From Psammoneis japonica (lineage: Eukaryota): 64,000 bases of DNA. The notes beneath the pieces were generated by a model. The model searched no databases and was not told where the DNA came from. It saw nothing but the letters and a program-made list of their open reading frames with translations. Shown here one piece after another: positions 4,520 to 58,050 of the stretch. Location: contig QPGO01000069.1 of the NCBI GenBank assembly GCA_008632985.1, positions 1 through 64,000 of the forward strand. Direction: 5' to 3'. Made by a program: the position numbers and the translations under genes. Position 1 is the first letter of the stretch; each line of letters starts with the position of its first letter.

Positions 4520-6119
4520 ATGATCATGTGGCAGGCTTTGTGAGCTCTCTCTCTCTCTCTGTTGCCATGGCCAGACTGTGAGGTGCCTGTCTTGTCACCT
4601 GCCGCAGTGTGCAGTGCAATTGCCAGTGCTGGTGCGCTCTTAAAAAAAATGCTGTGGCAATTTGGTGGCCACCCAGCAAGTTTTGCAGACTCACATCACA
4701 GCCAGGTGGGATGAAGGCAGTCATCACAAAGAAGTCAGCAAAAGAAGAGTGAGTGAGTCAGGTGCAACACGAAGCACTTGCCGCCGCCGCTGCTGCGCCT
4801 CCCTTTGTCTCAGCTCAACAAGAAATGTTCTCTGTGCTGCCGAGTTTTCTTTCACACAGCTGGCTGCTGTGTGCACTTGCGCTCAATCAACTTTTGACAA
4901 AATCTGTTTGGTTGTCAAGACACTGTTCATTGGACTCAGCTCACATCCATTTTTTGTGCAGAGCAAGCGCCCCCACTTGCTTGACCCCACATTGCCACGC
5001 CCACTGGCTCAAGAAGGGCAGGAGGAGGGCCAAGGCACCAGCATCTTCCACATCATCCAAAATGACAGCTGCACCTGGCTTCCAGAACAGAAAATGGAGA
5101 GCTGCCCACAGCTGCAGCTGGCTCTCAATGGCTGCCACAGCTCACACCCAGAGCAGCCACACCAGTGTGATGTGGGGTGGAGCACACAATGCATGTTCTC
5201 AAGCAGCTTGGAAAAAGCACACCATGGGCATCAAAGAATGTGGCTGGCAGCCTCGCTGGTGGAGATTCAAGGAAGGTCACAAAAAACAGAGCAAGAGCTC
5301 TTTGATGGGAGCAAAGCCACTCCAAGTGCTGCTGGTGATGATGCTTTCAGGCCAGCTTGTCTTGCCTCTTGTTGATTCATCTCAGGAAACAGCCCAGCAT
5401 CTCATCTGACACATCACTCTTGTGGCTTTTGATCTCAAAGAACCATTGAGCTGCCATGGGAGTTTTGCTCATCAGCAACTGCTGTTCCACAAAGGCTGCA
5501 CAGCCCAGGAGGGTCACTGTGTCTGATGCTGCCATGGCCAAACAATTTTGCTTCAAGAACAGCAGCCAAGGAACCACAAAAACAGATGGCAACATTGACA
5601 ATGTGCAGAAGAACAAACATGTTGTCCATGCAACCACTGCTGCCACAAAGAGCAGCTAGAATGGCACCATGCACTTCAAAGAAAAAGCTGTGCAATGCTG
5701 CTTTCTGCAATTTGGCAGCACATGAAAAAGGCAACAGGAGATAAACAAGAGGGTGACAACAAGTGAAGTGCGCGGGGGCAGCATCAAGAAAGATGGGCCA
5801 GCAAAGCAAGAGCACTTCAATGCAACAAAAAAGGCATGCATGGTGATGAAGAAAGAGTGTCATTGTTGCCAACATTCATGACTCTCAGGAGAAAAGCCAG
5901 TGTGCTGTGTCTCATCACAGAACACTCCCAACTGGGAGGTCTGCAAGTGGTGCGGATCACAGAAGGTCGAAGCCGCTGCAACGAAGAAGAAGTGCGGGGT
6001 CACTGCCTTTTTTCACAAATGTCCTCCATCCAGCAAAATGTCTGAACCAACCACATGACAAGGACTTGGCATCATTCCCATGGTCATCATCATCAAAAGT
6101 GAAAGGCTGGTTTGAGGGA
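4520..6119. mobile_element. Degenerate unassigned repeat/TE relic, interrupted by the copia insertion and continuing at ~13553-13780
   Basis: Almost no TpA, few CpG, no recognisable protein. The same composition resumes after the AGGGA TSD. Confidence 0.55.
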
Positions 6120-6396
6120 TGATAGAAAATGAAGGCAAATGGCAAGAATTCAAACAACAACTCCTTGCTGCTGTCTAAACAGCAGATGAGTCTCCGCTCA
6201 GAGACCGTCACAGGAGCCGAAAGACGTGCAAGTCGGTACAATCGGGCTGCTGTTGTCATTCTTGTGAGCCTTGTGGCTCGAAAGCAAACTACATCGCCGC
6301 GTGAACGCGCGGAACTAAAGCACACAAAACTGTGCGCGGTAAACTAAACAGCGCGCGATGCTTCGCGCGCATCCAAATCCTGTTCAAATCCTGTCA
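6120..6396 (-). repeat. 3' LTR of copia element 1 (277 bp, TpA-mutated copy)
   Basis: Direct repeat of 13277-13552 with 10 substitutions and 1 indel. Preceded on the minus strand by the PPT ACTGGGGAG. Confidence 0.97.
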
Positions 6397-9300
6397 CTCC
6401 CCAGTTTGCTTGAGGAGCCACAGAAACAGATTCGACTTCGGATGGAATGAAGTTCCAGAACATGAGGGGTCGGAGAAGGTCCCAGATTTGGGAGTGACCC
6501 CAATGCTTGCTGAGAATGTCAGCAGGGTTGCGGGAGCCTTCGATGAAGTGGAACTCAAGGCAACCAGAGGCAATTGCCTCACGCACACGGTGGAACGACA
6601 GTGCGGTGTGTCGCTTGTGCAACTTGGAGTGTGGGATGGTGGCACTGTCTACAACCGACTTGTTGTCACCGAACATGTAACTGACATTGCGGATCGGGAC
6701 GCCAAGGCAGCGCAGGGTGATGCGCAGGTCGACAATCTGCTCAACACAATTCCTTGCGGCAACAAATTCAGATCCGCAGGTTGCAGTCTCCACAGTGGCT
6801 TGTTTCTTGGAGAACCAATCAGCCGGGAATTTGTTGAGGAAGTGGAGCATTCCCATGACAGAGCGCCCGGTGAGCATGCAATGGTGCAAGTTTGCATCGA
6901 CGCAGTGGGTGGCAGTGACGAACTTGCCAAGGGGCGGTGGAGCGTCCTTCGGGATCATCTCTTCTGCTTCACCGTACACGGAATGCATCCATTCGTAGGC
7001 CGGAGCAGGGAGATCCGAATGGTCGGGCTCTTCCGTGCGAACGCGGAGAGCACCGTGTCGCATCTTGGAGAGGTGCCCACAGACGCGTTTGGCACGATCC
7101 AAGTGGCCTTGACGGGGCGCAGCTCGGAAGCTAGAGAGTGACATGACGGCCGTGGCAATGTCAATTCGACCAAGGGACACTGCCCATTGGAGTGAACCAA
7201 CAAGAGACTGGAACTTGTGAATGCCATCGGGTCCCAGCAGTTCGGAAGTGTCCAGTTCGGGGTGGTCACCCTTCTCTAGAGGTGACAGGGCGTTGGTGGC
7301 AGGTTTCTCCCCAAACAGTCGGGCGCAGCTGTCGACCATGCGCTCGATGTACTTGCGCGGAGACAGGCACAAGGTTCCATCGGGGTCCCGGGAAAAGTCG
7401 CAACCCAGATGGAACTCAATGGGTCCCGCACCCTTGAGCTTGAACTTGCACTTTTCCGTGAGAGTGTCGACGAAAGATTGAGGGTCCTTCATGGCAATGG
7501 CGAGGTCATCCACATAAACGGCAATGTGTTCACAGTGGTCGCCGTTCCTGCGCATCCAAATGTCGGGTTCGGCGCGGCAGGGGAAGAAGCCTTCAGCTCG
7601 CAGGCAGTCGGCGAAGCGCTCGTGCCAGCGGAGACCGGAGCTGCGGAGTCCACACAGTGCCTTGTGGATGACAAGGATGTGTCCTTCGAGTTTGCCAAAT
7701 TCGGGTCCAGCTACAATGTAAAGCTTCTCCTTGGTGGTGGCTTCAAGGCAGGCATTGCCAATGTCGGTGGCCCATGTCTCCAGCTCGTTGAGTTCGCCAG
7801 GTGCACTCGGATCTTCTTGTGTCCCGCAGGAGGAGTGGAAGACTTGAAGGGCCCGCAGTCATGGAAGACTTCGCATTCGTCGAGTTGGTCCATCTCGAGA
7901 TTAGTTGCGTCTCCCCACTTGCGGTTGCCATTGCGTTCGTCTAGTGACATGGCGTGTTTGCAGTTCCGGGGAACTTCGCATCCGCACTTGCAGCGAGGTG
8001 CAGTGCGGAAGGAGCGAAGCTTGGCTTGGTTGGCCATGCGAAATAGCTTCTTTTGGCGCCTCGCGATGGTGCGGAACCGCTTCCATCCATCCGTGTCGAG
8101 GAGTCCGTTCTCTCGTGCATAGATGGCACAGGTGACGGGGTCGTCCTTGGCGATGATGGCAAGAGGCTCGGACGTGATCTCCCCACTTTCCCATTCAAGC
8201 ATGATGTTGTAGCTTGAGCCTTTCCAGGTTGGGTCGTGAGGCTTCAGAGGGCCTTCGTGTGACACGATGCGTCGAAATTTCCAAACAGTGGTGTCTTCGT
8301 CTTCTTGCTCAATGTGATTCATGATGTCATTGTAGGCAAGGACTTCCTCGTATTCGTCATTGTTGACAGAGCAGACGAACTTAGTGAGCTCGGGATTGCC
8401 GTTCACTTTCCATTCGTGGTCTTCGACGGCCTTGACGATGCGAGCTCTGTGGCGTTGTCCGTCCTCTTGTGGCTGCATGAGGAAGGTACGTCCAATGATG
8501 TCTTGCGGATCGAAAACTGGCATCTTGGGTGTCCTGATCTCCCCATCAGGAGAATCGACGGGGTTGTCGTCATGGCGAGATTTGATGATGGGTTCAGGTG
8601 GCTCCCCATCAGGAGGATCAAGATGCAGGTTTCGAACGGCAGGATCGGGGGTGGCGGAGCGAACGTTGGACCGGCAGAGGATCTTCTGAGTCTCGTCAGA
8701 TAGAATCTTGAAGGTCATCTGGTGGCCGACGTGCTCAGCAATGCCAACGAAGCGTCCACGCAACTCACGAGATTCGGACGGCCAATCGGAGTCATCGAGG
8801 TGGAAGTACACTGGTTCCCACCAGTGAAAGCGAAGCAATGGGCTGATGTCCGGGGTGGATCCAGTGAGAGTCTCGAGGGGCGTGCGCCAGTGGAGACGTG
8901 GGGACGCTGCATGGTTGAGTGTGAAGCACACGTGCATGAGCGCCAGCAGCCATGTGTGGGCGGGCGAACCAAAACGGTCCATGACAGTGTTCGCCATGCG
9001 CTTCACAGTCTGGTGTCGACGCTCGGCAAAGTTTTGGTGTTGCTGGTGAGGCTCACTTTGCCAGCTGGAGATGAAGAGGGCGCGTAGGATCCCGAGCACT
9101 TTGTTGCTGATCTCAACTTGAGCACGGTCGCTAATGAGTTTGGATGGGGCACCACGTTCACGGATCTGATCCTCGAGTGTGTTGACAAACTCTTTGTCCG
9201 TCTCAGTGCCGCAGACGTCAGTGACGGTAGACTCGGTGCCAACAAACAGTTGGGCGCTGGTGCAACCAGAGTCGACGGCCGGGGTGTCGGCACAAACGGT

Positions 9301-12300
9301 GTCAGTGGCGATGGGCTCGTTGCGACGGTGCACATTAAGGGCGGGGTTGGGTGATTTGAAGGCCTTGCGAAGGTGTGCACCGGCGGGCATGCGGGCGTGC
9401 TGCGTGGTGCAGTCAAAAGTACGACGGACTGCATCGGCAGGCAGGAAGCCAAAGTGAGGCCGAAGGGACTCGAAGGGGGGGTCCTTGGGCTGTACAGTGC
9501 GCTCCGGAGGTGGAACGTCATCGCCCTTGGGGTCAATCGCATGCAGATGACACTCGCAGAACACGTCGTCGTTCGGAATGAGGTGATCATCGAGGGCGGA
9601 CGCGTGATCGGCAGACAAGGAAGCGGACAAGATGGTCTCGTTGACAACGACACGGTGACGGCAGTTGCCGCATTCGTCAAACAGGTTGGCAGTGGGATCG
9701 TCCTGCAGGTCAGAGATCGCGTCGTACCACTGGTCATCGTCAGTGACAGAGTGATCGAGGACGGAAGGGTCCCATGTGTCATCACCGGTGAGGATGACGT
9801 GGGGCAGGGTGTCCCATTCGGCGTCAGTGCAAGGTCGCATGGCAACACAAGGCAGGCCAGCCTTGATGTCAATGGGGATGACATAGCCATCAGGAGTGGC
9901 AATGCGTTGCAAGCCGTTGGGCACCTTGACAGAGCGATCGTTGACATCCTGTTTGCACCATTCGAGCTGGCCGCAGGAATGGATGGTCTTGCCCTTTCCT
10001 GTGCATGCGCACTGATGGAGGATGGCGATGACGGGACCACGCTGGGTCTCAATGACGGCACCAGCGGTGACAATGGGGATGTCCACCAATTGATGATCGT
10101 CAATGCCCTGAACGTCGACTTGGCGAGAGGTGCGTGCGATGACGCGGACGTCGTCGCCAGCAATGCCGCCGTTGGCCCCACGATCGACTAGAGCGCCAGT
10201 GCATGTGGAGCGATGAGCAGAGGCAGAGTGAATGACATTGTGGTTGTCAACGCGGCGGCAAGTGCGGCCGTTAAGTTCTGTGTCAGCTGCAGAAGCTGGC
10301 AACACAAGGCAGGCCAGCCTTGATGTCAATGGGGATGACACAGCCATCAGGAGTGGCAATGCGTTGCAAGCCGTTGGGCACCTTGACAGAGCGATCGTTG
10401 ACATCCTGTTTGCACCATTCGAGCTGGCCGCAGGAATGGATGGTCTTGCCCTTTCCCGTGCATGCGCACTGATGGAGGATGGCGATGACGGGACCACGCT
10501 GGGTCTCAATGACGGCACCAGCGGTGACAATGGGGATGTCCACCAATTGATGATCGTCAATGCCCTGAACGTCGACTTGGCGAGAGGTGCGTGCGATGAC
10601 GCGGACGTCGTCGCCAGCAATGCCGCCGTTGGCCCCACGATCGACTAGAGTGCCAGTGCATGTGGAGCGATGAGCAGAGGCAGAGCAAATGACATTGTGG
10701 TTGTCAACGCGGCGGCAAGTGCGGCCGTCAAGTTCTGTGTCAGCTGCAGAAGCTGGCGGGGTAGAGGAAGCGGCGGATGGCCCCGGTCGACTGGCATTGG
10801 TGGCTTGGTTAGGAGACAACAGACGTTGCAGATCACCGGGTGGCAGTGGCTTGCGCTTGGTGAGGTGCGCCAGGATGGGATTGTCCGAAATGGCGTCCAC
10901 ATGTGCAGCGGAGTCACCACAGTCAGCAGGAGTCGTGTTGGACAAGTTGACATCACCGTCACTCCCAAGGTGTTGGTCGTGAAGGTTGGCCGTAACAGAC
11001 TCATGGCAGTTGCTGGCTCGCGGGTTGCGGGGAGGCGGACGAGAGTGCTCAAGGATGATCGCCTTGGAGGAATCGGGCAACGAATCCCAGAGCCGTTGGT
11101 GGTCGGGAGGGAGACGTCTCCATTGGACACCGGTGAGGCTGGGACCACGGGTGCAGGCAGCATTGGCTTGAAGGACGTCAACGTCGCTGTCAATGTCGTA
11201 GAACACATCGTCGGACGGTTCCTCGGAGCAGACGTCGTGTGCGCATGTGGCGTGTCGGGGAGCTCGAGGTGTTGTCTTGGGTTGAAACGTGCTGTCGTGC
11301 TGAGCTGCCGCGGAGAGGAGCAAGCCACAGCATTGATCGCATGTGAGGCTCTTGCCACTCTGCGTACGATGCTGATCAGCTTGGTTCTTGACAGCACGGA
11401 GTTCCTCGACAGGGTGCACGGCATTCTCGAGCATGACGCGCTTCTGTCCTTCAGAGAAGTGGTCGCTGGCGGGGATGAGTGCCTCGCACTTGCACAACTG
11501 ATCTTGCCAATGAAGGATGAACCCGTGGGTCGGACCTTTCCAAGTGCCATCACCAAGACGTGTGGTGGTGAGGTGCGTGAGCAGGGTGGAGGACTCGACA
11601 GATGCACGGGTGGAGGCAAGCGCGCATTCAGACAAGGAGCGGCAGACGGTCTGTGCGTCAGAGGACCCCACATTTTCGCGAATGAGAGCCTTGCCCTTGT
11701 CGGTGAGAAGGATGCGTTCGAAGACGGCGAACATGTGCTTTTGCTGTTCAGCAAAGAGCAGTTTGTCTTCGGGGCTGGTCGGTTTGTACGACGAGTCTAG
11801 AATGCACTCGACGTCTTGGGCACGGGCTTGTGCCACAAGTGAGGTGTGCCAAGTGTGCCGCTGCTTGTCGGATTTGAGAGCCGTGAAAGCGGTGGGATCA
11901 CGCTTGATGCCTCGCTTGAAGTCTCGCACCGGGTCGCGTGCCTTGGTCGGGTTGGTGACATGTGGAGGTGCAAGGGGTGAGCTGCCGATGGACAGAGAGG
12001 ACATGCAGTCCGGGCTGAGGCGGTGGGCAAGGAACTCGTCATGCGTGAACAAAGAGGAGTCATTGGCAACGTCAAGACCTTTGTGTGCTTTGACAATGCA
12101 CAGGCCAACTGGTGCTGCTGACATGTTCTTATAACCATGGGGCAAAGGGATCACATTGGCGCGCCGTTGTCGCACTCAAGCGAGTCGATTTGGGACGGTG
12201 TGAACGTGAACAGTTCCTGATGCGAGTCCGTGCCGTCTTGGGCCAAAGCCAAACGAAGAGGACTCCCAGCACCTTGGGCAAGCACGGTTCCAACAACGTG

Positions 12301-12339
12301 CTCGAAACCATCGGTTTGTTGCTGACGAGTGAGAACCAT
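6397..12339 (-). pseudogene. gag-pol polyprotein of copia element 1 (frameshifted, internally duplicated and deleted)
   Basis: Gag: FKRGIKRDP, LENAVHP. Protease: LVDRGANGG. Integrase: IATDTV..., LISDRAQVE, HQNFAERR. RT: WATDIGNA, AVYVDD. RNase H: CVDANL, SEFVAAR, GDNKSV, NPADILSK. Confidence 0.95.
9840..10757. repeat. 457-bp tandem duplication of the protease region with TGGC microhomology
   Basis: 9840-10296 is repeated at 10297-10753. TGGC occurs at 9840, 10297 and 10754. 457 is not divisible by 3, so it frameshifts pol. Confidence 0.95.
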
Positions 12340-13265
12340 GGTAGACAAAAGTGGTGTCAGGACAATCAATTCTGGTTGGGAAGCGAAGGCAGACTCGAAA
12401 CTTGGGTGAGAATGGACTTGACTTGAAATGGACTTGACTTGAAATCTTGAACTGTCTTAAAATCAGAAGTCGCCGGGCTTTGTCATCCCGTTCGTTGTCA
12501 AGTGCTAAACTTCCCATCCGGACCGCAGAGTTGTGCCGGCACGTCCGAACCCGCAGCCAGCGGCGCTTTGGGTTGCTTGCGAGCGGAGCAGCGGGTTGTA
12601 AACCCCTGCAGGCAAGCTGAACAGAGGTGGACAAGACCCCCGAACCGTTCTTATTTTGTGTCGGTTGGATTTCCCGATCAGGCTGGCCAGTTGACGCAGG
12701 CGTCAGGCGCTGTGGACGAACGAACAAACGCGGGAAAGCACCCTCGCCCCAATGCAGGCTGCAATCACGGCTGCTTGCTCTCACAGTCGTCCTCGTGGAC
12801 CCAGTAGAACTGTAGAGCACCAGTAGTCCGGGGTAGATCAGGTACAATGGACTCGGTGTGCTTGTAGAGTGGTGGCAAAACCGCAGTCCGAAGAGTGGGT
12901 ACAGGTTCTTGGCCGTGAAGATATGTATATATATATGTCTTCAGCGACGAAGATCCTTGAATATGTAGGGTTCTTGACCGTTAACCGATGAATAGGTATA
13001 TCAAGGGATGAGGATCAAGGATAGACTTGGATATGACCGTTGAATGTATGTCTTCAGCGATCAAAGGTAGTATAATCAATCCAGATATCCAGCGGTAAGG
13101 AGACTTGACGGTGACGTTAACTTCCTGCCGATGCCCTGGTATTGAATGCGCGTAGACTTGCCGATGTATGTAGAATATATACGGAGGTCCACGTAGAATT
13201 GAAATAGCGTCGTTGGTAAATCAACGACGACGATGGCGGTTGCTCAATGGGTTGACAATGAGCAA

Positions 13266-13276
13266 GACTGTTAATC
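13266..13276 (-). other. Putative primer-binding site complementary to a tRNA-Asn(GUU) anticodon arm
   Basis: Plus-strand GACTGTTAATC abuts the 5' LTR and resembles the tRNA-Asn anticodon stem-loop (positions ~30-40). Confidence 0.55.
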
Positions 13277-13552
13277 TGATAGAAAATGAAGGCAAATGGC
13301 AAGAATTCAAACAATAACTCCTTACTGCTGTCTAAATAGCAGATGAGTCTCCGCTCAGAGACCGTTACAGGAGCCGAAAGACGTGTAAGTCGGTATAATC
13401 GGGCTACTGTTATTATTCTTGTGAGTCTTGTGGCTCGAAAGCAAACTACATCGCGCGTGAACGCGCGGAACTAAAGCACACAAAACTGTGCGCGGTAAAC
13501 TAAACAGCGCGCGATGCTTCGCGCGCATCCAAATCCTGTTCAAATCCTGTCA
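13277..13552 (-). repeat. 5' LTR of copia element 1 (276 bp, TpA-retaining copy)
   Basis: TGATAG...CTGTCA, direct repeat of 6120-6396. Confidence 0.97.
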
Positions 13553-14157
13553 AGGGACCTGTGGTTTTGCCAAAAATGCCCCAAATCACGTGATTTGTGA
13601 TTTTGTTCTTCCTGGAGCTGGGGGGCATGCCCCTCTCTGGTGGTGCCAAAGAACAGCAGAAATGAGGACTTGAATTCACTGACAGATCAGAACCCCCCAA
13701 CATTCTTGTTTCTGTAATTCAGCAAGAAGTGATGAGGGCAGAAAGCCTGCATTTTCAGTTGTGGACTGTTGCTTGGAATGACCCGTACATGTATGGCGTT
13801 TATGGTGTGTTCCACGTGTCATCAAATAACACGACCCGGCTATTATTGCCAATGGGGCTTCGGTGCTCTGTAGGGAGCTACGAAAAACATACTGAGAGCG
13901 AAATTCGTTCCGTGAGAAGCCCCTCGAGACCCAGCCACAAGATTTTGTGCGTCTACGCCTGCCTACCTGCTGGCTGTTGTTGGCTGTGTTGAGTGTGCTG
14001 TGTTGAGTTCCATCCTCGTCCATCGGCGTCGCTGTTGTTGCTGCTGCTGCTTTGGCGCTGTTATTGCTTTATTTGCCATTGCTCTTTCTCTTGCGGCAAG
14101 AACGTTAGACTCGTTTCAATCTCTTAGTTGACGCAAGATAAACAACACTTTTTAAAA

Positions 14158-43250: not shown

Positions 43251-43292
43251 CACAACAACAACAACAACACACAACAACAACAACAACAACAC
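43251..43292. repeat. (CAA)n microsatellite
   Basis: Imperfect CAA run. Confidence 0.9.
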
Positions 43293-45145
43293 ACAAATGC
43301 ATGATGCTTCACAGATTCCATTTGGGTTCATGTTCATTCCAAAGAAAGCCACACATCACATGGCCTCACAGTGAGTGGGCCATCATCTGTCCTCCATGTG
43401 CTGCTGCAAAACATGCTGCAGCTCTGACAAAGCAAGCAAATCCAGAGCACTTGCCTTGCTTTCTCTGTTCCATGATGAGTGAAGCCTCTGCAACAAAACA
43501 AAGAGCAGCCAACTTTCTCCTTGTGTCACAGTTGTTGCAATGCAAGAGTTTTGAAACAAAAGTTTTAACCAAAAATGAGCATTGCGAAGAACACCCCAAG
43601 GAGAGCATGATGACTTTGTGACACAATCTGGCACTGTTAGAATTCATTTGTGATCTCTGCATGTCTGTCTTGACCCAACATGCTCAGGCCCATTCCCACC
43701 CAGCTGGCTGTTGCTGCAAAACAAAGCAAATTCTGTTCCATGTGATTTCCTGTAGAAACTTTTGCACAAAAATTGCACGTCTCTGCAAATCATCTGACAG
43801 TTTGTGGCAGAAAATTTCACAGCAAATTTGAACAACAGCTGTTGAACTGTGTTGCCACAAATTCTCTCCTCTTGCAACAAACACAAGTTTTGTGGCAAAA
43901 GTGCTTTTTAGGAGCTCATGTGGACAGTTGATCATTTCACCACACAGCGTGCCAATGGCATCAGCCTGAGCATCTGCCAGTGACTGTTGTTGCAATCTGT
44001 GCTGTCATGGCAGTTTTTTTCTTGCAATGCTGCAAGACAGAAGCTCTAACTGCAATCCCTGTCACTCTCCACACAGCGCCTGGAGTGACAACATCAAGTG
44101 ACTTGTGCCTCTGAGGTTTCTCAATTGGTCCAGAATGTCTTTTTTTGAGTGTGCTGCTGAACTCTGCACTGACTGTGGGTGGGAGGCACACAGCAAAAAG
44201 CAAAGGCACTTTCTGTGGGGATGCACTCACTTTTTGCAGGTTGTGCTGCACCCAACAGAGCTGTGGAAAGCTTGTTGAAAAAAGGGGGGGACATGGCAAG
44301 TTGCAAAAAAAGGCCACATTGCTAAAAGATTCAATGTGTCCCAAATGTGTGGGCAAAAAAGCACCAGGTTAAATTGAAAGGCACCACTTGTTGAAGGAAA
44401 AGAAGTGACAAAATGCAATGATCTCAGGGAGTCAGAAAAAGAAGAAACTGTTGCTTGTCAGCATCGTCCGTTGTTCACAGCAACTTCAGCAAGCTCTTCT
44501 CAGAGCAGCTCAAAATCTGTGTGTTGCCATGTTTCCTTGCAATGCACTTGAGCCATTGTCAAGCTGCAAGAGCTGACTTAATGTCTGGACAAGAATTTTT
44601 GTTGTGATCACACATCATTTGAGCTTGGTTGTGCTGTTTGGGCTGAGTTCTTGTTGCTGCATTTTTCTGCCATTGTTGTCCTTTGCCAGGTGCAGCAAAG
44701 TTGCAGGAAAGAAGAAGAAGAGCCATTGTGGTGCTGCCTTTTGGTGCACTTTGCATCATGCTGTTGGGCAATTGCTTCGTCATTTTGCAGTGCTCACTCC
44801 TGTCGATCTCATCACAAGACACACGATATGGGAATTTTTTTCAACTGTGCTCCTGTCCACCTCATTGCCCACCATTAATTCCCTCTTTTGCTTTAAGAAG
44901 TTGGGCTCTTTGCAAATGTGAGCAGCAATCACAAAATGGACAATGAGCATTGCTGGCTGGGCCTGCACACTCAACTGCCAGCCATTTTTGATGAGCTTGT
45001 TGAGATGATGTTTTGAACTTTTTCAAGGCTCTTCTGATGCAAAGTTTTCAAGGAAACAAGGCATTTTGTCACCTTGGCATGATGTTGGCTCAACTGGATT
45101 TTTTTTTTTCAAAACAGCCAGTTTGTGACTGCAAGTGTTGCCAAC

Positions 45146-45299
45146 CACAGGAGGGCTGTCACAAACCCATGGCTCCTGCAAGGAATGAGATGCCAAGGCA
45201 CACCCTCATGACAGGGAGCTGACACAGGAGGGCTGTCACAAACCCTTGGCTCCTGCAAGGAATGAGATGCCAAGGCACACTCCCATGACAGGGAGCTGA
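45146..45299. repeat. 2 x 77-bp tandem repeat
   Basis: CACAGGAGGGCTGTCACAAACCC...GACAGGGAGCTGA starts at 45146 and 45223. Confidence 0.93.
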
Positions 45300-46569
45300 G
45301 CATTAGTTTGCCACCCACCAGCTCACCACACAAAGCTGTTGGAGCCAAAAACTGCAGGTCTTGGGAGAAAAATTGAGAGCAAAGAAAGCTGGGCCAATTG
45401 TGTTTGTGAAGAATCTACACAGAGCTTGTTGCTGGGATTCTAAGATCAAAACCCACCAACAATCAACAGCTGATGAACCCTCCATTCTTTCATTTTTCAG
45501 TGGAAAAGAACCCTCCATTCCAGCCTGAGCTGCATCTCAAGTGCTGTTTGTGCAATGCAGTGGTGGGTGGCCAGGCTGTTTTGCCACCGCATTTGCCATG
45601 TTGCCAGCCTGCACCACAATGGAGGCAGTCTTGATGTCCTCTTGCATGGGCCCTTGATGACCTTTTGTCAGGTGGAGTGTCTGTGAGACAACTTCCTGCT
45701 GCACATGCATTTTTAGAAGGAAAAGGGGATTTTTGCAGCCAGTGCATTTGTGATGACATGGAGAGCTGGGTTTTGCACATGATGAAGCTGGTCATTTTGT
45801 GCAAGTGGTTTGAATGGAGCATGGCACCCAGTCTGATCCTGCAGTGGTGGGGTTGACTGTTGTGTGGGAATGTCATGATGGATGTCCAAACACATGGGGC
45901 ATTGGCACATTGAGTTTTGTCACCTGGAAAATGTCAACCTTGACCTGATCAAGCACTTGCACAAAGGCAGACCAGCACTGTCTTCTCGCTGCAATGCCTG
46001 TGCTGATCTGAGGCAATGGGATGCACATGCCTCACAGACAAAGGCAGATTGCTTTCATGGGCTGCAGCACTCATTCTCATGCAATGAAGTTGCACGCTTC
46101 TAAATGTGGCTTTTGCCACTCATTGGCAAGTCACACCACCATCATGTGCAGGGTTGCTTTGGCCTCTTTACAAAGCAATCCATTGCATGAGATGTCACAA
46201 AAGTTGTGAAATGATGACATTGCTCAAGGCAAGGCTTGAAACACTCACATTTTTCCTCTTTCTCATTGTCCAGCAGGACTTTTTCCAGTGACTTGGACAG
46301 GTGTGATGCAACAACTGTGTGTCAGCAACAGTGACACCCAGTGTCAGTCATTCCCTCACAACAGAGAGCCATGGACAGTGAAACATCTCTGCAGTTTTGA
46401 ACTTGTGTGAGTTTGCAGCTGCACTTGGTGAGCCACTGGATCAGCTTTTGGCTTTTGGGCATCCTGAGATGGGATGAGAGTTGATGATGGATTTGTTGTG
46501 CATGCTGAGAAAGGAAAAACTCCCTTTGCCAAGATCAAGCCACTCTGAGCTTGTCACAAATTATGAACC

Positions 46570-48050
46570 CACTCATCATGGCATCAAATGGAGACCTCAT
46601 GTCCCCACATCCAGAACAGTGACTGGGTGGATGAGGTGGAGTTTGGATGCATTGCATGCAAAGAGCATCCCAAAACTCTTCACAAGAGAGTTTGACACAG
46701 TGTCAATGGGTCGCCAATGGCCACACACCAGTCTTGGTGCCATGTCCCAAAGCTTGAGGCTGATTCTCCAAAGATCATCTTGAGTGTCTCCTCATGCATT
46801 TTTTGCACTTTCCTCTTGGCCAATTCTCATTTTGCTTTGCACAAAACCATGGTCTTGTGGGCCATTGATTTGAGTTTTGAGCAGCTGCGCAGCAAGTCAA
46901 TCCTGTGGGAACATGCAAGAGTGCTTGCTTTGCAGCTCTGTGCCACACAAATTCCACTGGATGAGGGATGAACAGCCCTGTAAATTCCATTGGGGTGGCT
47001 TGACAGGTCCTCATCAGCTGGGGCTTGCTGGCCATGCTGCAAACAACTGGCAAGAGTGACAACTGAAGCCTGCCATCAGCTCAAGGACATGTCTGAAGGC
47101 ATGCAAACAATTTGCTGCAGCCCTTTGCTGCATGTCACACATGCTGCTGCCTGCGCTGTGGGGACTTTTGAAGGCTGGCATGAGTGGTCTGTGGGCAGTG
47201 GTGAATCGCAATAATTGCAAGACCACGGGCCACCACCAAGGTCGCTTTTTGGGGATTTTTCATCAATCTGCTGGTCAAACAAGCTCTGCTTGCCAATGAA
47301 ACCTCCAAGGCTGAATTGTTCACTGCCTGAGATGATGGCAAATCTGTGTCATTGGCAGGACAGTGTCCATGCTTGAGACCAATGGCTCTCCTGAGGGAAG
47401 CTGAATTTTCCTGCAGCTGCAGAGTTGTCAGTGCACCAGGGGGGTGCATCAGGGGCTTGGTCACTCATGCATTGGACCAGTGGCCCACATGCTGTCATGC
47501 CCTCCTGTGGGACACCTTTCAGCACTTGCAACAGTTGAAAGTGAACCTTGCCACAGATGGCCAGGTGTGCACTGTGCTGCACAACACATCAAGATCATGC
47601 TTGGTTTGCCAAATCTGTCAGAGGCAAGAGGCATCAATGTGGACAAAAAGCTGTTGTGTTCAAACTTGCATTGCTTCCAGAACATGCTCATCATGTTGGC
47701 TCTGCCTTCAGCACCTGCTTCCAATCCAGCACAAAGCTGGCCCAAGCTTTCTTGGCTTCTGGCATGCTGGCAACCAGTCACGAGAGCACAGCTTTGGCCA
47801 GCACACGGCAAGCTGCCAGATCTCTCCATTGCCAGCTGGACAGATGCCCAAACTTTTGTCAAATGCAAAGAGTCTCTTTGTCATGATTGCCTGACAGGCT
47901 GCCCATGGAGGAGTTGCTTGCCAGCCAGCTTGCAAACATGCATGCCCCTCTCCCCCCCCCCTTTGCCCAGAGCGGAGCGACACGGCATTGGCATCTGACC
48001 CACCAAGTCCTGCACTTCCAGATGATGTTCTCATGATGGGACATCTTGAA
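46570..48050 (-). mobile_element. Remnant of a CRE/R2-group non-LTR retrotransposon reverse transcriptase
   Basis: Degenerate motifs in the expected order: SGSAGLGGSDA, PPWAACQAIMTKRLFAFDKSLGICPAGNGEIW, QLCAGLEAGAEG, WPSVARFTFNCCK, PWCTDNSAAAGKF (WYADD-like, ~47404-47438), EFWDALCMQC...PSHCSGCG. Confidence 0.75.
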
Positions 48051-48349
48051 GCTCAGACAGTTCACTGAATTTGTGAAACTGGTCTTCTTCCCGAGGCATC
48101 GAATCAAAACGAGCGGACGACCTTGTCGTACATATGTTCGGCGACGAGTTACATCGCCTGTCAAGACAAACACTGGCTGTCCAAGCACTGTCAATGACAG
48201 TAATTTTTACAGAGATGAATAATTTCAAATGCAGCATTCTATCGCGATCGCTTATTTTGCACGCAGGTGCGACACGTGCGAAACGTGAAACCGCTACAGT
48301 TACTGTAGTAGAGCATTGCCCGCATTGAGCTTGCCTACAGCATTAGTAC

Positions 48350-49891: not shown

Positions 49892-50060
49892 TTTGGCGAG
49901 GGCCCTTAGATAACCACACCTTGTTATGTCGAAGCCTCTCATGATTTTCAGTTCTGAATTTTTTTCCCAATGCTCTTGTTGTATGCTGCCACATGGCTCT
50001 AGCTCGGGCAGTGGCAAGAACAGTCTTGTTAGGGAAAAGAGCAGAGCTGCGCCGCTCCTG

Positions 50061-50168
50061 GTCCTTGCAAAACAGTCATCCTTCTTGCACTTCCATTTGC
50101 AGAGACTGCCCACAGCTCTTGTCCTTGTAAACAGTCACCCTTCTTGCACTTCCATTTGCAGAGACTGC
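50061..50168. repeat. ~60-bp tandem repeat (about 1.8 copies)
   Basis: GTCCTTG..AAACAGTCA.CCTTCTTGCACTTCCATTTGCAGAGACTGC at 50061 and 50121. Confidence 0.85.
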
Positions 50169-50412
50169 AGTTCCTCCATTGCCTTGTCACTCCCCGCTCT
50201 GACAAAGGTTTTGCAACACACAGCTTGCCATGAGGTCACTCCATCAGTGGCTCTGGGGTGGTTCTGGGGCTTGGCCCCTCCTTCTTTGCTTTGCAAGAGA
50301 GCCACATGGAGTTTGCTGGTTGTGGAGAAAGGCTGCTCATGTGACTTGCTGTGGGTGATCATTTGCATCACATTGGCAACATGCAGGAGAGATGCATTTG
50401 AGGTCTGCTGCC

Positions 50413-53400
50413 AACCCAGACACATTGAACCTGGAGATGATTGTTGAAGGAAGGGCACGTGGGTCCTGACATGTGCCACAATGACAACTCTCCTTGAAGA
50501 ACTGCACAGCAGCTGTCAATCCCCAAGATCTGTTTTACGTTTTGTTCTGGTTCACACAAACTGTGTTGAGGCATCAGCAGGCACCTGTTTTGTGTTGCAA
50601 ATTTGAAGTTTGTTGAGAACTTCTGGGCAAACCACAGCCACCACAGCAACCAGGGCAAGTGCAGCAAGCAGCACAGGAAGCCTTGCAGGATTCCATTTTG
50701 ACAACATTGAGGACTGGCTGGTTCAACATTCACCCCGAATGGTCACAAGCACAGTGTTTGGTGCTTGTTTCAACTGACTTCACACATTTAACTGACATTG
50801 GAACTCTGCATTGTGAGTGGTGGAGGAGGTGGAACAAATGGCAGAGACCAAGGAAGTTGCTGAGGTGGGGGTGACAGAGGTCACAAGTTTTCCAGCAACA
50901 ACAAGAAGACCAACATGAAGAAAAGCTTTCAGCCTGAGATGAACTTTCATCCTTCATCACTGATCAAACACATGAAGATGTTAAGGCAAAAGTTGTCAGT
51001 TGCATTCAGAAGGAATGTGAACAAGGTGTGCATCCAGCAAGATCCTCAGAAGACATGAAGTCCAAGGATTTCATTGCAATTAGAACCCCACATTGGGTGC
51101 ACCAAAGTCAGAATGGCCAACTGACCAGATGCAGACAGACTGCCACAATGAGGTGGAAGTGAGACACTGAGAAGCAAAAGAACTGAAGAGCAAGTGCAAG
51201 GCCCCAAGCTTCACAACTGCAATGACAAAGTGAAGAAGCTCAAAAAGAGAACGAGACTGCTGCATTTGCCAGGATCCCAGATGACTGCTGCAGGAAGTTA
51301 ATGAGACAGAGAGTGCAAAGCAACCTCAGTTGCTCAAGCATTGGGGATGACCCAACAGCGCAACTCAAGCTAACACAGCTCCTTGTGTTTGACTCAATGA
51401 GAGGTCAACACCCATTCTGCACACTTGCTGAGTCTCTGAAGAACATGCTGGAAGTAAAACACAACAAGAGAACAAGTTGATGAATGATTGGCTGTCAAGA
51501 TTCAAGAATCAGCATGATTCCACAAGTGACAGTCTGGGAAAGAAGATGCCAGACAGGTTCATTGAGAACACCAAGGAACACAAGAGTGTGGCATCTCAAC
51601 TGTTGATGCCAACCTGAGAGACGCTGTGTGTGAGACATGGAGATGCACCTGTTTTGTGGAGAACAGCAACAATTGCTTCTGCAACAGCTTGAAGAAGAGC
51701 TTTGTGAGCAATCAAAACCTGGGCAGGGATGCACATCTGAAGACCCCAGACATGGCAATGAATGTGCTGCTCAATCATCCAAAAGATGATGATCCTTGCA
51801 AGCATCATGGCAAGAGGAACAATGAACATCCAAACAACAAGAATGACAATGCAAAAAGAGGCAATGAAAGGCCCAACAACCCCAAGGACCAGATTCATGC
51901 CCAGACAGGCAACCAAAACAATCCTGTGATGTGTCGCTGTTGTGGTGAGCGGAGTCACAAGTCCCCAAGTTGCAAGCACAAGAACAAGATGCCACACAAC
52001 AAACAGCTCAGGAATGCTGGGAAGAAACTGGATGCCAAGGGACGGAGTCACACACAGATGTGAGGTGAAAGACAACTCGTTGGTGGACAGCAACAGTGCA
52101 AGCATTGATGCCACCAGATGTGACAGATCAAGCCACAGCCAAAGCAGCAAGAAGCAAACATGGCACAGAAACCAACTGGGCACAAAGATTCCAGCAGAGC
52201 AGCAAGCCAGAGACTGTTGCACAACATTTGTCCAGCAAGGGCCAAGGCAGACCTGCATGCCAGCACAGGAGCGGACACCTTGGACAAGGACTTCACCATG
52301 CCTGGATGGGGAGACACAAAGCTGAGATCACAGAATGTGATCACAAACACCCTGAGTTTGAAGGATGTGAAGAACAAACGCTGTGTCACTTGTGAGAACA
52401 GAGTGGCCAATGAGTTTCAACTGCTGGACAAGAAGACTGGCAAACAAGTCACTGTGTTCAAGGTTGACAACATTGGGCAGCATGCATTTGTGCTGAGCTG
52501 GCAATTCTTTGACTGTGTAAAAGATCTCCTAGAAAACAAGATGTGCGTGAGCATGCTGTTAAAGAAGAAGACAAAGAAGACGCAGGCTGCACCAAGAGAG
52601 AAGTGGCAAGTGCTTGGCAAGCTCTCAGACTGTGTTGTGAGACTGGAGCACCCAAGGTGAGGGATTTCAAGCTGTTTTTTAGTTCTGGCCAAATGAAGAA
52701 CTTGTCCATTGTTGCTGAAGATGTGGGCAGGATGGCGGCTGTTTGGGGTCCACCAACAGATGCAATGAAAGGCAAGGCCAAGTCCACACATCATTCCCAA
52801 GAGAGAAATGACATTGTGGCAATGCCACCTGAGACACACAAGAAGCAGAGAGAAGGCATGATCCTCTGCATTGACACCATGGAAGCTTGCAGAGTCAAGC
52901 CTTTGCATGCAACAGACAAGATGATCAAGTGCCAATTGAGTGTGGGACTGAGATCCAAGAAATGTGATGATGTGTGTGAAGCACTGGACATGATCCTGTG
53001 GCAGGATGACACAGCCCTGTTTAAGATTGACTTTGTTGAGTGTGATTCCAAGTTCAAGGACATGCCTGCAGAAGTCACTGATGGCATGAATCTGGAGCTG
53101 ATTTCCATGAATGCAAAAGATCATGTGCCTGAAGTTGAGCAGAGCATGTGCAAACCAAGGAGCAAACACAGCCACAAGCCACTGCATGCCATGTGCCACA
53201 CAAGATGACACCCAAGTTGATGTGTGAGCAAGCCACAATCAAAAACACTGTCATGTTGAACATGTGCCTGCAGAAAGAAGAGATCTCTGACACTTGCAGT
53301 CTTCACATGATTGTGCAATGAAGAACCCTTGATTGTGACAAACACTTCAAGTTCAGGTTTAGAGAATTTGCAATCTTCCATGTTGAGAATCAACCAATGA

Positions 53401-56400
53401 ACACCATGAGAGCAGACACGGCATTGACATTGCATGCCTGTGACCATTCTTGATCTGCTCAAGGGCAGACACTGCACCATGAACCCACCAGGGGGAGAAG
53501 CCATTGAACCCCTGCAAGTGCACCTCCACACCCCTGGCCAACACTTGTGTGCAGGCTGTTGAGGAGATGGCCTTGAAGCAAGGCATCAAGGAAATTAAGT
53601 TCACATGGGCAAATGCAGAGATGGTCTGTGTGATGTCAACTTGAGTGCAGGAGTGGACAAAAATGAAAGCAACAGCAACAAAAGTGACAACGATGATGAA
53701 TGAAAAGAAGGGATGATCACAACAGGCTGATGTCAACAATGTGACCAATTAATCCCAACCTGCATGGACCATGTGTGGTCCTGGAAAAAGGCAAGAGAGT
53801 TCTTTGCATCCAAGTCATCAGAGCCACATGTGGCACAACAATCACAGCCATGTTGTGGTGCAATCAATTTCACAGAGACTTGGAGAGGAGAAGATGCTGG
53901 GGTTTAAGTTCAACCCATGTGATCCATGCATTGCCATTTGAGCAGTTAATGGCAAGCAGCACACTGTCCAATTCCACGCAGATGTGACATGATGGTGAGC
54001 CACAAGAACCCAAAAGCAAATGACAATCCATTGCAAAGTTGTCACCACACAAGGAAAGAGACATGACTGTCTTGACAAGACCATGGACTTTGGCAACAAG
54101 GGCAACAAGGTGAAGGTGACATGACCAACTGTGTTCACAAGATGATTGATCACTTTCTAGAAAGGAAAGATTGGGAGCATGGATGCTGCCATCATGCCAG
54201 CAGGTGAGAACCATTTGACACCAGCAGCACCAGGTTGCCAGCAGAAAAAGCACAGCCATTCCACACATGGGTGACCAAGGGACTGCTTGTGTCCCCAAGA
54301 GAGGCCACATGCTGGATGGGTGCCCCGCTGTCACTGCACTGTGTGCATGATGAGTGAGAGAGCTCACAAATGAGGATTGGGGAAAACCAGTCCATTGTTT
54401 CAAGCATGGTGTGAACCAGACAAGAAATGAACTTGCTGCATTGAGCACGAAAGATCATTGAGTCATCAAGTGGCCTCAAATGGCACGTGGGTGCATCAGT
54501 TGCAGCACATTCTGACTTTGAGAGCCACACCGGTGGAGTCATGCATGACAATGGGCAATGGAGCAGTGCAGGCTGCATCAAAGCACCAGAAGCTCAATGC
54601 TTGAAATGGCACAAAAGCTGAGCTTGTTGGAATCAATGGTGCCATGACTGTGCTGTGCTGTGGACAAAGTTGTTCATGGAATGCCCAAGGCATCTGATTG
54701 ACAAGAATGTCCAGCATCAGGACAACACGAGTGCCACACTGCTGGAAGCCAATGGGCACAAGAGCATCTGCAAGAAGCAGTCAAGAGTGCTCAATGTTTG
54801 AAACTTCTTTGTTGCCAATCAAATTGAGAAGGGCAACAATCTTAGAGTGCAGTGCCATCCTGCTGATGACATGCTTGGAGACTTCATGACCAAGCAATTG
54901 CAGGGCAAGAAGTTTTGTAGATTCAATGAGCTGTTGTGGGCCATTGACCTCAAGCATGACAGAAGCAACCCCTGTTCTTTGTGGCATCAACAAGAGCTCT
55001 GACATGCATGGGTGAGAAAGATCCCTGAAGTTCAATGCTCAGTGCAAGCATGAGGCCAACAGAGCCTTCTTGAAGCAAAGGCACATGATTTGTGACCACA
55101 ATGGCAAAGATGAGTGTGAATGTGTTGCCACTCAACCCAGTCACATTGAGATGGCCACATGATTGTTGGGCCTGGTTTGACGGCCATGACCATTGCATGG
55201 AATGCCACATGCACAAACTGCCATGTGAGCCAGATGGCATCACAACATGCAATGAGGAGATGATTGGTCACTTTGAACAAGCAAAAGAAAAGCTTGTCAG
55301 ATGGCTCAAGAGTGGCACCAAGGTGGAGTTGACAAGCAACCTGTGCTCACAATGAAATGTCTCCAACCTGCATCAAATGACGATTGATGCAAATCAGACA
55401 AGGGGAGGACACAACATGGAATGCAACAAGATCCCCAGTCTAAAGTCCAAGTTGATGAAACTGTGTGAATGAAGGCATTCCATTTTATGAGACTTTCATG
55501 ACAACAGCATGAGGCATTGGACCCCAAGTCAGCTCAAATGCATGTCTGCTGTGACACTGATGTTTTCTTCACATGACAGTTGCAACACAACTGGTGATGC
55601 TGAGATGTGCACCATGGAGGTGCACAAGGCCAGTTGCCACTGACAGATTGCCAGTTGTGACTTTTGCTTGCAACACAAGATGTGTTGCCAAGAACATGAA
55701 AGGCATGGTGAGGATGAAGAATTCATCAGAGACAAATGCATTGCTGGATCCAAGAATGGGAGCTTGCAGCTCACACTGGACCATGGAGATTTTATGATGT
55801 TGACAGGGTCTCATGAAACTCAGTCCCAGAGACAACAAGTGCAACAAGATCTGTTTTGGACTCATGTGTGACAAGAATGGATGCATTTTTTATGCAAAAA
55901 AGTTGGCATCATTTTTCCACCACAATGTTGTTCAGACAAGACCCAGGACAAAATGTTCTTGTCATCATGTGGGACTCTTTGCACTGGATCCCAAAGTCAT
56001 CAACAGCCAGATCATGGACCTGTTGATTGGCACTCTGTGGACAATGGAGTTGGCAGAGCAGAGCCGCTGTGCCCACACTGGAAAGTTTGTGGAGCACATG
56101 CAAGACAAGGCAGATGAATTCAATGATGACATGTTGGGGATGGTGCATGGATCAGCATCATGGTGTGATGACAGAGATGACAGCATTGGACAATGAGGTT
56201 GGGCCAGAGAATTCATTGTGTGAGTCCCTTGTGGGGATTCACCAGTGTGTTGATTCTAAGAAATTCAAACATTGATGAGAGCAGCAGGAGTGCATTGGAA
56301 CATCAAGACAAGAACCCAGACACATTGAGCCCAGAGATGATTGTTGAAGGAAGGACATTTGGTCCTGGTGCATGCTGCAATGATGTTCTCCTCCTTGAAG

Positions 56401-56652
56401 AGTTGCGCCATCATTGACCCCCAAAATTCATTTTAAATTTTGTTTTCACTCTTTGGAGTGAGTCATCTGGTTTACACAAACTGCATTGAGGTGTCAGCAG
56501 GCACCTGTTTTGCTTGTGTCACAAGTTTGAAGTTCATTGAGAACTTTTGGGAAAACTGTGGCCACTGCAGCAACAACCGGGACAAGTGCAACAAGCAGCA
56601 CAGAAAGCATCAGGGATCCTTTTTGACAACATTGACTTGTGCTGGTTCAACA
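50413..56652 (+). mobile_element. Old Ty1/copia LTR retrotransposon 3; diverged LTR segments at 50413-50728 and 56313-56652
   Basis: Direct repeats end in GCTGGTTCAACA. Zinc knuckle CRCCGERSHKSPSC (~51932). PR-like LVDSNS. GAPKVRDFK...KN..AEDV...WGP...KGK. RT: RATCG...MLWC, FNPCDPC, VNGKQHTVQFHAD. RH: HVGAS..H...SHTGG, QDNTSA. Confidence 0.85.
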
Positions 56653-58050
56653 TCTGTTTTGAAAATTCTGGATTTGCTGCCATTGTGCTTGGCGGTGATC
56701 CGCCACTGCTTGGGCTCAATGCACATGGTCCAATGGACAAGATTGGAGGTTGGGACATGCTGTTGTGTGGGCTGGCCAATCTTTTTGCTCTCACAGCAGC
56801 TGCAGTTGCCAGCACTTCTGCACTCCCTTCCCAACAACAATGTTGTCAAGCACCGTGGCCAACACCACTTCTGCCTCTAACTCTGGTTGTTTTTGCTTTT
56901 TTGACAATTGCAGACATTGCTTGTTGAAGCACCAGTGACAATGAAAGCACTGGAAACCACAAAGGCATGTCTCTGGTTTTCTCTCAGGGGGCAGGAAGCT
57001 TCCCTCTTTTCCTCTTCTGTCCCATCACTCTCCACCTTCATCTTGGTGTCTTTTTCCATCATCCATTTTCAGTTTGCATTGTTTGTGAGAGATTTGTAAA
57101 AATCAAATGACAACCCACTGGCATTTTCATCTCTTTTTTGTTTTCATGATGCTTTTGTCCATGGCAAACACAATGTGCAGGAACATGTGCCTGTTGGTGT
57201 GTTGCTCTGTGCTTCTGATGGTGGTTTGTTTTGCAGCATTGCATTTGAAGTGCCCACATGCTTGCTTGAAATTTGCTCAAATGGAAAACGAGATGACACA
57301 CGTTTTTCTGCAACCAAGAACAGAGGACCTGGGTCATTTCATTGTCATTGCAGCAGTGCAACCTCCAGCAGCACACAAAAGTCTCATCCAAGGGTCATTG
57401 TTCCTGGTTGGATTTTGTCCTCTTTGTGCATTGCAATTTGCCACACATTCAATGCCAAGGGTTGCTCTGCCATTGCAAATGTCTTGGCTCAAGTGCAACT
57501 TGACCTGCCCAAAGAAAAACTTGTGCTCTCTCCATCATTGTGCCCAGCTTGAAAAAAGCACAGTGCATGGGCTGCAAGGCATGAACATCTTTTTCTTCTT
57601 CTTGACACACTGCTCAAATCCTCTTTGCACAAACATGACTGCATGGCTGGTTGTGCACACTTGCCTCCCCAGCTTCCAGGTCTTGACAAGCTTCTGTTCT
57701 GACCAGAAAGCCACCACAATCACAACTTTGAGTGTTGCAGCAAGGGCGAGGCTTGTTGCCTCACCTCTCTCAATCATCTGACACACCATGGCCAGCTCCT
57801 CACATCTGAGGGACGATCGTCTTGGCTCCCTTCACATGATGCACGAGACACCTCAGGGGGTCTTCACCCGCGGCTCCCTGGCAAGTCAATCACTGAAAAT
57901 TCACATGTTGTCATGTTGTGAACAACCTGGTTTTGCAAGGCTTGTCGAGAGTGCCCTTGTCATTGTAACAGTTTGGATGCAATGTGATTGTGGAGGTGCC
58001 ACATGGATGATCACAGAGGAGCAATTTTTGTGAGAGAAAGCAAGACAGCC
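56653..58050. mobile_element. Unassigned TpA/CpG-depleted relic
   Basis: Composition only. TpA returns abruptly at ~58065. Confidence 0.5.

Follow-up and report, generated by a model that had tools for sequence, protein, structure and literature searches.

The question raised by this stretch of DNA, 64,000 nt of the diatom Psammoneis japonica (GenBank assembly GCA_008632985.1, contig QPGO01000069.1, positions 1 to 64,000; hereafter the window), is how four long blocks within it came to be almost devoid of the dinucleotide TpA while the genes beside them have kept it. A sequence-only reading had ascribed the loss to a chromosomal, repeat-directed mutator that turns TpA into TpG or CpA in transposons. 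We suggest, with a probability of roughly three in four, that the blocks record in-situ TpA hypermutation of DNA inserted into the diatom nuclear genome. The process would be of the type that a recent preprint describes for DNA of nucleocytoplasmic large DNA viruses (NCLDV) and virophages integrated into the genome of the chlorarachniophyte Bigelowiella natans (Mettrop et al., bioRxiv 10.64898/2026.01.13.699255). Mobile or foreign DNA would thus have been hit regionally, in place, after its integration, with A:T to G:C changes at TpA steps on either strand yielding TpG or CpA.

Observed/expected dinucleotide ratios (o/e) were calculated in 1-kb windows slid across the 64,000 nt. TpA o/e is 0.02-0.24 per 1-kb window across approximately 4450-12805, 22650-29080, 39726-48129 and 49990-57966 and 0.36-1.2 in the flanks, which bears out the contrast between TpA-poor transposon blocks and TpA-keeping genes that had been described from the letters. 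There is no overlap between the two kinds of DNA: in the 28 tract windows the ratio does not exceed 0.23, and in the 30 host windows it is never less than 0.36 (Mann-Whitney p=7e-11); the 1.9-kb PAS gene lying between blocks 3 and 4 has a TpA o/e of 0.43-0.48. When the five tracts are pooled (30.9 kb) they contain 140 TpA, whereas the host o/e of 0.574 would predict 1093. Taken singly they have TpA o/e values of 0.03-0.16, compared with 0.57 in the host, and TpG and CpA values raised to 1.7-2.0. Among the 16 dinucleotides only the four pyrimidine-purine (YpR) steps shift between host and tracts: TA falls from 0.57 to 0.07 and CG from 0.93 to 0.41, and TG rises from 1.20 to 1.68 and CA from 1.18 to 1.75. 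The corresponding values for AA (1.17 and 1.09), AT (0.95 and 0.92) and TT (1.17 and 1.20) are unchanged, on which grounds GC-biased gene conversion and any general pressure from AT to GC were rejected. One consequence is seen in the stop codons, of which both strands of the tracts hold 1543 TGA, 121 TAA and 82 TAG, compared with 1158, 537 and 549 in the host. Because TAA and TAG are gone, long open frames occur in several frames of a tract at once, and the length of an open reading frame (ORF) inside the tracts is uninformative as to coding.

Judged by their sequence features, blocks 1 and 2 carry long terminal repeat (LTR) retrotransposons of the Ty1/copia type. Block 1 is composite, and consists of a diatom-type copia element on the reverse strand (6120-13552) nested in older, unclassified sequence poor in both TA and CG (4450-6119, and 13553 to approximately 13750). 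The element has TG..CA termini, a perfect 5-bp target-site duplication (AGGGA at 6115-6119 and 13553-13557) and a pair of LTRs of about 277 nt at 6120-6396 and 13277-13552 that are 96% identical. Its ORF at 6347-7858 matches the RVT_2 domain (E=2e-16), and 2236 homologues of its reverse transcriptase (RT) were found, the best with 70-71% identity and the named ones from Cylindrotheca. Within it, the hypermutated interior (6397-12805) has 46 TpA in 6409 nt (o/e 0.158), with a CpG o/e of 0.91 and 57% GC, while the 5' leader and 5' LTR (12806-13552) were spared, the leader having a TpA o/e of 1.09 and the LTR, with its 16 TpA, one of 0.83. The older sequence on the left has 3 TpA in 1670 nt (o/e 0.03; CpG 0.22, TG 1.87, CA 1.78), and that on the right has 0-1 TpA and 0-1 CpG per 100 nt at 13553-13752. 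Block 2 (22571-29230, forward strand) appears to be an older copia-like LTR retrotransposon, with LTRs at 22573-22813 and 28999-29224 of 81% identity and RT similarity at 26929-28636 in the form of a weak RVT_2 match (8e-5) and tblastn matches to copia RTs. Its tract, at approximately 22650-29080, has a TpA o/e of 0.078 and a CpG o/e of 0.45.

The direction of change is loss of TA, as had been argued from conserved tyrosines, and it can be read from the proteins that the copia elements once encoded. The RT/RNase H ORF was aligned with 120 database relatives, and a column was taken as conserved where 80% or more of them have Tyr. At the 33 such columns of the two elements together, 17 now have Cys, four have His and five are still Tyr. 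The 14 columns in RT/RNase H of block 1 comprise three Tyr, seven Cys, three His and one Phe, and the ten changes from Tyr to Cys or His form the largest class among the 32 differences found where the relatives are conserved; columns of conserved Cys or His are unaltered in this alignment. A further four columns upstream (7786-8300), in a part that includes the stretch CKCGCEVP, have one Tyr and three Cys, so that Cys or His stands at 13 of 18 conserved Tyr columns in the copia interior. Block 2 has one Tyr, seven Cys, one His, four Phe and two other residues at its 15 columns. All of the peptide motifs cited in the sequence-only reading are present, every one of them inside the copia element of block 1, and the presence of both outcomes, TG and CA, is confirmed by the mixture of Cys and His. 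The DNA of an environmental relative (L001, the one confirmed locus out of 48 pattern matches in a metagenome scan) is 70% identical in amino acid sequence and has a TpA o/e of 0.65-0.69, compared with 0.16 in the homologous segment of the window, at similar CpG values (0.84 and 0.81). The normal TpA of this relative, together with the losses at Tyr columns, indicates that TA poverty was acquired and is not native to the family. The GC-rich copia interior might be thought to favour an explanation from native composition or codon usage, but the lost Tyr columns and the relative's TpA make it scarcely credible. The same can be said of errors by Pol eta at WA motifs, one of the candidates that had been put forward, since ApA is not depleted, ApT and TpT likewise keep their values, and none of the nine TA-type LTR differences described below is a transversion.

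The two LTRs of one insertion, which were identical at integration, provide a second and more local record. The copia pair differs by ten substitutions in 277 columns, all of them transitions, and at nine of the ten the right (5') LTR has TA where the left (3') LTR (6120-6396) has CA (six sites) or TG (three sites). The 3' LTR has therefore lost 9 of the 16 TpA that the 5' LTR retains, the 5' LTR has lost none, and not one of the nine TA-type differences is a transversion. A 457-bp tandem duplicate in the same element has six differing positions, all of which are YpR transitions (two TA/CA, one TG/CA double and two CG/TG). In block 2 it is position that matters: two TA are kept by the left LTR alone, at distances of 16 and 53 nt from the left end of the element, and seven by the right LTR alone, 4-99 nt from its right end, and the matching LTR positions that face the interior are all TG or CA. 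One contiguous domain has been mutated in place in block 2, from 53-145 nt inside one end to 99-183 nt inside the other. A RIP-like gain of TA in the spared parts of the LTRs was rejected, since in block 2 it would have had to be restricted to the last 100 nt or less at the ends, around an interior free of TA. To judge from the spared 5' LTR and leader of copia, and from the outer 50-100 nt that were spared in block 2, the domain may be centred on the body of the element. Hypermutation would act inside the element, in a domain ending some 50-750 bp from its termini, and adjoining genes would be spared.

These comparisons bear directly on the possibility that retroelement RNA or cDNA was edited by ADAR-, TAD- or APOBEC-like enzymes before it integrated. 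Two of the tracts are retrotransposons, and ADAR-type enzymes favour a 5' U, as is also pointed out in the B. natans preprint (bioRxiv 10.64898/2026.01.13.699255). Such enzymes resemble the present case in that they are deaminases that hypermutate mobile or viral nucleic acid through transitions, but they act on RNA or single-stranded cDNA ahead of integration and with a strand bias. In the window both strands were hit, the LTRs of one insertion with an intact target-site duplication differ by position, and the loss of TA ends inside the copia element and yet is also present in the older sequence that flanks it. The position-dependent states of the block 2 LTRs exclude editing of an RNA or cDNA intermediate for that element, and the explanation as a whole is very unlikely. 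The conclusion that the process is chromosomal and follows integration, reached earlier from composition and motifs, therefore stands. The 3' neighbour preferred here is a pyrimidine, the reverse of the 3' preference of ADAR.

Whether repetition as such could be the trigger can be judged from a control provided by the host itself. A 3.2-kb host tandem duplication of 94% identity lies in the window, copy 1 at 19004-22196 and copy 2 at 22196-22570 and 29231-32023; block 2 interrupts the second copy, and in copy 1 the empty site remains at 19389-19393. The 129 substitutions between the copies are 62 transversions, 37 other transitions, 13 of TA type and 17 of CG type, and TpA o/e is 0.45-0.66. 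This ordinary spectrum means that duplication as such is not the trigger. A mutator of the kind known from fungi as repeat-induced point mutation (RIP), set off by homology between repeated copies, would be consistent with the membership of both classifiable elements in a large family and with the multi-copy parts of blocks 3 and 4, where word depth in the contigs of another sequencing run (X1, see below) reaches 3330 compared with about 57 for single-copy DNA. We nevertheless regard it as improbable, because the host duplicate is normal, because the greater part of block 3 (42335-48129) has no further copy in X1 at an identity of at least 85%, and because two LTRs that were identical at insertion have fared differently. 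The main target in B. natans is likewise a single-copy viral insert, according to the preprint. The earlier description of the mutator as repeat-directed is accordingly not upheld. Fungal RIP has in common with the present process that mobile DNA is ruined, within the chromosome, by transition hypermutation specific to a dinucleotide, but RIP proceeds from C to T at CpA and creates TpA, while here TpA is destroyed and Tyr codons become those of Cys or His. RIP also mutates any duplicate above a few hundred bp.

The rate of TA loss can be compared with background substitution in the copia LTRs: across about 245 sites and both lineages a single non-TA substitution is counted, and 9 of 16 TA sites have been lost in one lineage. 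As a rough inference this gives an excess of about 200-fold, with a lower bound of about 36-fold from the 95% Poisson limit for that single event. Hypermutation might thus run at roughly 100 times the background rate or more, and would outpace the decay of CpG in these sequences. A strong depletion of CpG, which the sequence-only reading had not mentioned, also feeds TG and CA in the tracts, with CpG o/e of 0.45, 0.15 and 0.10 in blocks 2, 3 and 4. Ordered by LTR identity, the copia element of block 1 (96%) has a TpA o/e of 0.158 and a CpG o/e of 0.91, block 2 (81%) has 0.078 and 0.45, and block 4 (72% between its LTR-like repeats) has 0.058 and 0.10, although LTR identity is no clock in this case because hypermutation itself lowers it. 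TpA loss is saturated before CpG decay becomes visible, and the two are therefore separate processes. Decay of 5-methylcytosine (5mC) resembles the TpA process in converting a self-complementary YpR step into TpG or CpA, but it cannot remove TpA, and in the young copia element TpA loss has been the faster of the two. CpG decay alone is thus ruled out, and it is best seen as a slower overlay in blocks 2-4, presumably with 5mC as its source. The statement that neither fungal RIP, nor CpG decay alone, nor editing of RNA or cDNA would account for the pattern has proved correct.

The bases that flank TpA influence how readily it is lost. Surviving TpA are in the context Y-TA-R (Y, pyrimidine; R, purine) in 76 of 140 cases in the tracts, compared with 207 of 1247 in the host (Fisher p=3.5e-21), and in R-TA-Y in 13 of 140 compared with 368 of 1247 (p=4e-8). 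TTAA makes up 20.7% of the survivors but 3.8% of host TpA, and ATAC and GTAT together 1.4% as against 14.1%. At the level of the duplex the rule is firm: R-TA-Y is removed first and Y-TA-R last. Sites at which a single strand offers an A followed by a pyrimidine, which we term one-sided, allow the strands to be told apart. The mutated A is the pyrimidine-followed one at 10 of 13 such LTR sites and, among Tyr codons that come after a pyrimidine, in 11 of 13, or 21 of 26 when pooled (one-sided binomial p of about 0.001). Provisionally, this can be described as a strand-level preference for 5'-T-A-Y.

What chemistry might produce such a pattern is a matter on which we can be only tentative. Our leading candidate, at odds somewhat short of even, is adenine deamination, by which adenine in DNA would be converted to hypoxanthine by a TadA/ADAT-like deaminase that might be guided by silent chromatin or small RNA; 5mC, histone marks and small RNA are candidates for what would target the domain. 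The natural target of TadA is an A that follows U and precedes C in the anticodon loop, and DNA adenine base editors were evolved from this enzyme. The U-A-C context may be likened to the T-A-Y preference seen here, by analogy. We know of no natural TadA or ADAT enzyme that hypermutates chromosomal DNA regionally. The same in-situ process could, with a smaller chance, have another chemistry, in which thymine at R-T-A in silent chromatin is oxidised by a TET/JBP-type enzyme to 5-hydroxymethyl- or 5-formyluracil, or is otherwise modified, and then mispairs with G, giving T to C. Change from A to G on one strand is indistinguishable from T to C on the other, both outcomes are present, and the flank rule can be read just as well as R-T-A, so that adenine deamination and thymine modification are inseparable from sequence alone. 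Some protists place hydroxymethyluracil preferentially at TpA, and 5-formyluracil mispairs with G. However, the clean TG and CA calls in X1 mean that we are dealing with fixed mutations and not with a standing modification, and we consider thymine modification unlikely.

It is also necessary to ask whether the depletion could be an artefact of sequencing or assembly, in which a modified base at TpA was miscalled in long reads. The contigs of run X1 have a word depth of about 57 and a longest contig of 315 kb, and 88% of sampled words from the window are present in them. Two other runs, X2 and X3, contributed almost nothing, with three matching pieces and none. Over the 16.3 of 20 kb to which the eight longest X1 pieces extend, 59 letters differ, and some 600 TpA that are lacking from blocks 3 and 4 are lacking in the X1 contigs too. 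X1 is no copy of the assembly, because host DNA also differs between it and the window. That identical LTR halves are read differently according to their position likewise makes a miscall less likely, and 2 of the 120 relatives, which come from other records, have the same signature of Tyr to Cys or His (P0035 at 7 of 18 and P0114 at 5 of 15 conserved Tyr columns) and the lowest Tyr content of all 120. Although the library types of X1 and of the window assembly are not on record, a miscall is an unlikely source of TA poverty and the artefact explanation is, taken with all of this evidence, highly improbable. Among 40 of the 316 differences between the window and X1 there are five adjacent CA/TG doubles, four of them in single-copy contigs, and four cases of TA against TG. 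Each double is explained by one ancestral YpR step that mutated independently in two haplotypes or strains about 0.3% apart, and those in single-copy contigs suggest that sites are hit recurrently. The ancestral step of such doubles in blocks 3 and 4 could be CpG or TpA.

Several points weigh against in-situ TpA hypermutation as we have set it out. X1 may be the source sample of the window. The copia 3' (left) LTR keeps three TA in its inner 100 nt and loses nine in its outer 170 nt or so, a patchiness that is not explained by a simple domain whose edges escape. In the bulk composition the ratio of YTGY+RCAR to YCAY+RTGR is 1.03-1.43 in the tracts and 1.19 in the host, a mixed result because of which the strand-level preference is held to be provisional. 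The control for composition is the DNA of one relative, L001. Blocks 3 and 4 are without protein-based polarity, and the TG/CA doubles within the blocks could derive from CpG as well as TpA.

The comparison with B. natans can be made in some detail. The sequence-only reading offered the pattern as a system perhaps not yet described, but the same signature has been reported from this alga. In mutation-accumulation lines 231 of 302 nuclear mutations fell in giant-virus and virophage regions, and 230 of these 231 were A to G or T to C, all at TpA, at a rate about 1000 times background and in some lines only (bioRxiv 10.64898/2026.01.13.699255). It was also reported there that TpA-poor coding sequences are enriched in RT and DDE domains and that TpA-poor 1-kb windows cluster, and an ADAT2-like deaminase was put forward as a candidate. 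In the window, too, the changes are near-exclusively A to G or T to C transitions at TpA, and they are confined to inserts with host genes spared. Likeness to the system described in the preprint extends to the use of either strand, the sharp edges and, on the estimate given above, a rate excess of orders of magnitude. The differences are that B. natans is a member of the Rhizaria and P. japonica of the Stramenopila; that the integrated DNA there is of NCLDV and virophage origin, with a Rho of 0.45 in the NCLDV region, while the targets here are LTR retrotransposons and unclassified inserts with o/e of 0.03-0.16; and that the rate in B. natans was measured de novo, whereas here there is an indirect estimate from LTRs only. 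Relative to the main sections of the preprint, the LTR asymmetry, the tract edges inside the element and the rule of resistant YTAR and sensitive RTAY are new. Its text, as far as the main sections go, does not mention diatoms or flanking context, though its Table S2 might hold flank contexts. Full-text literature searches returned no diatom report, and no second report from any organism, of the TpA signature.

The signature itself has thus been reported already, and what is new is its occurrence in a diatom, on LTR retrotransposons and near saturation. A second major lineage with this signature would make it look like a widespread eukaryotic means of disabling inserted DNA and not the oddity of one alga. 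Any mechanism must account for chromosomal action after insertion, for a domain internal to the element and for the flank rule, and since diatoms include genetically tractable species the enzyme should be findable. We infer a role for the process as genome defence. It is possible, though we would not put it as high as an even chance or close to it, that diatoms and chlorarachniophytes share an enzyme-driven defence, perhaps ancestral to the stramenopile-alveolate-rhizarian (SAR) supergroup, in which a DNA adenine deaminase, guided by chromatin or small RNA, rewrites TpA in place in silenced inserts, R-TA-Y first. If that were true, Tyr codons would be destroyed and TAA and TAG erased far faster than by 5mC decay, and a DNA deaminase acting at T-A-Y would be the native counterpart of the laboratory adenine base editors. 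For annotation, the loss of Tyr codons and of two of the three stops leads to long spurious ORFs in all frames and has let blocks 3 and 4 escape family searches. The dating of elements from LTR divergence will also be badly inflated in hypermutated copies.

The two remaining blocks are unclassified sequences poor in TA and CpG. Block 3 (39726-48129) has 28 TpA in 8404 nt (o/e 0.049; CpG 0.15) and includes a high-copy segment at 40334-42334, with an X1 word depth of 1369-3330. Block 4 (49990-57966) has 32 TpA in 7977 nt (o/e 0.058) and a multi-copy part with an X1 depth of 155-663 over 50339-55007. LTR-like direct repeats lie within it at 50413-50729 and 56313-56653, about 5.9 kb apart, and 13 adjacent TG-versus-CA double differences separate the pair. 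Both blocks had been called retroelements, a designation that is not supported by protein similarity. Pfam searches gave two RVT_2 matches, in blocks 1 and 2, and nothing else among 106 ORFs of at least 100 aa, and no match above chance among 125 ORFs of 60-99 aa. The block 3 ORF at 40374-41402 (reverse strand) had no match in an exhaustive HMMER search against 1.84 billion representatives, and the block 4 ORF at 52420-53238 (reverse strand) had none in a word-index protein search. A tblastn search with 120 copia RTs gave no match in blocks 3 and 4 or in 4450-6119. The label of gag for a 630-aa ORF is likewise without a family match, although its count of three Tyr is correct; an ORF said to be free of Tyr, at 23513-24361, does have none, and is also without a family match.

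Several minor features of the inserts can be added. The 457-bp tandem duplication lies within the copia coding region at 9840-10757, its copies are 98.7% identical, and the motif HQCACTG is doubled by it. Over its inner 99 nt (6298-6396) the copia 3' LTR is 100% identical to the 5' LTR and keeps three TpA, in CTAA, GTAA and CTAA. In block 4, X1 contigs run from 56507 or 56534 straight back to 50603 or 50610, a distance of about 5.9 kb that equals the spacing of the block 4 repeats; these joins would fit tandem, solo-LTR or circular copies elsewhere in the genome. There is an excess of A over T on the forward strand at 50001-56000 (AT skew +0.15 to +0.22), and between 51 and 55 kb the TG o/e of 2.1-2.3 exceeds that of CA, which is 1.6-1.9.

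The host genes of the window encode a lipase, a pseudouridine synthase, an FAD oxidoreductase, NudC, glycolate oxidase, DGAT, CDC123, a PAS protein and an FG-GAP protein, and have their best matches in diatoms. The glycolate oxidase is 85-88% identical to those of Phaeodactylum, Fragilaria, Fistulifera, Pseudo-nitzschia and Amphora, and 91% identical to further database records. The intergenic sequence at 34600-34900, between the glycolate oxidase and DGAT genes, is made up almost entirely of the words CTAG, GTAG, CTAC and AGAG, and with a TpA o/e of 2.41 at 34601-34800 it lies at the opposite extreme to the tracts.

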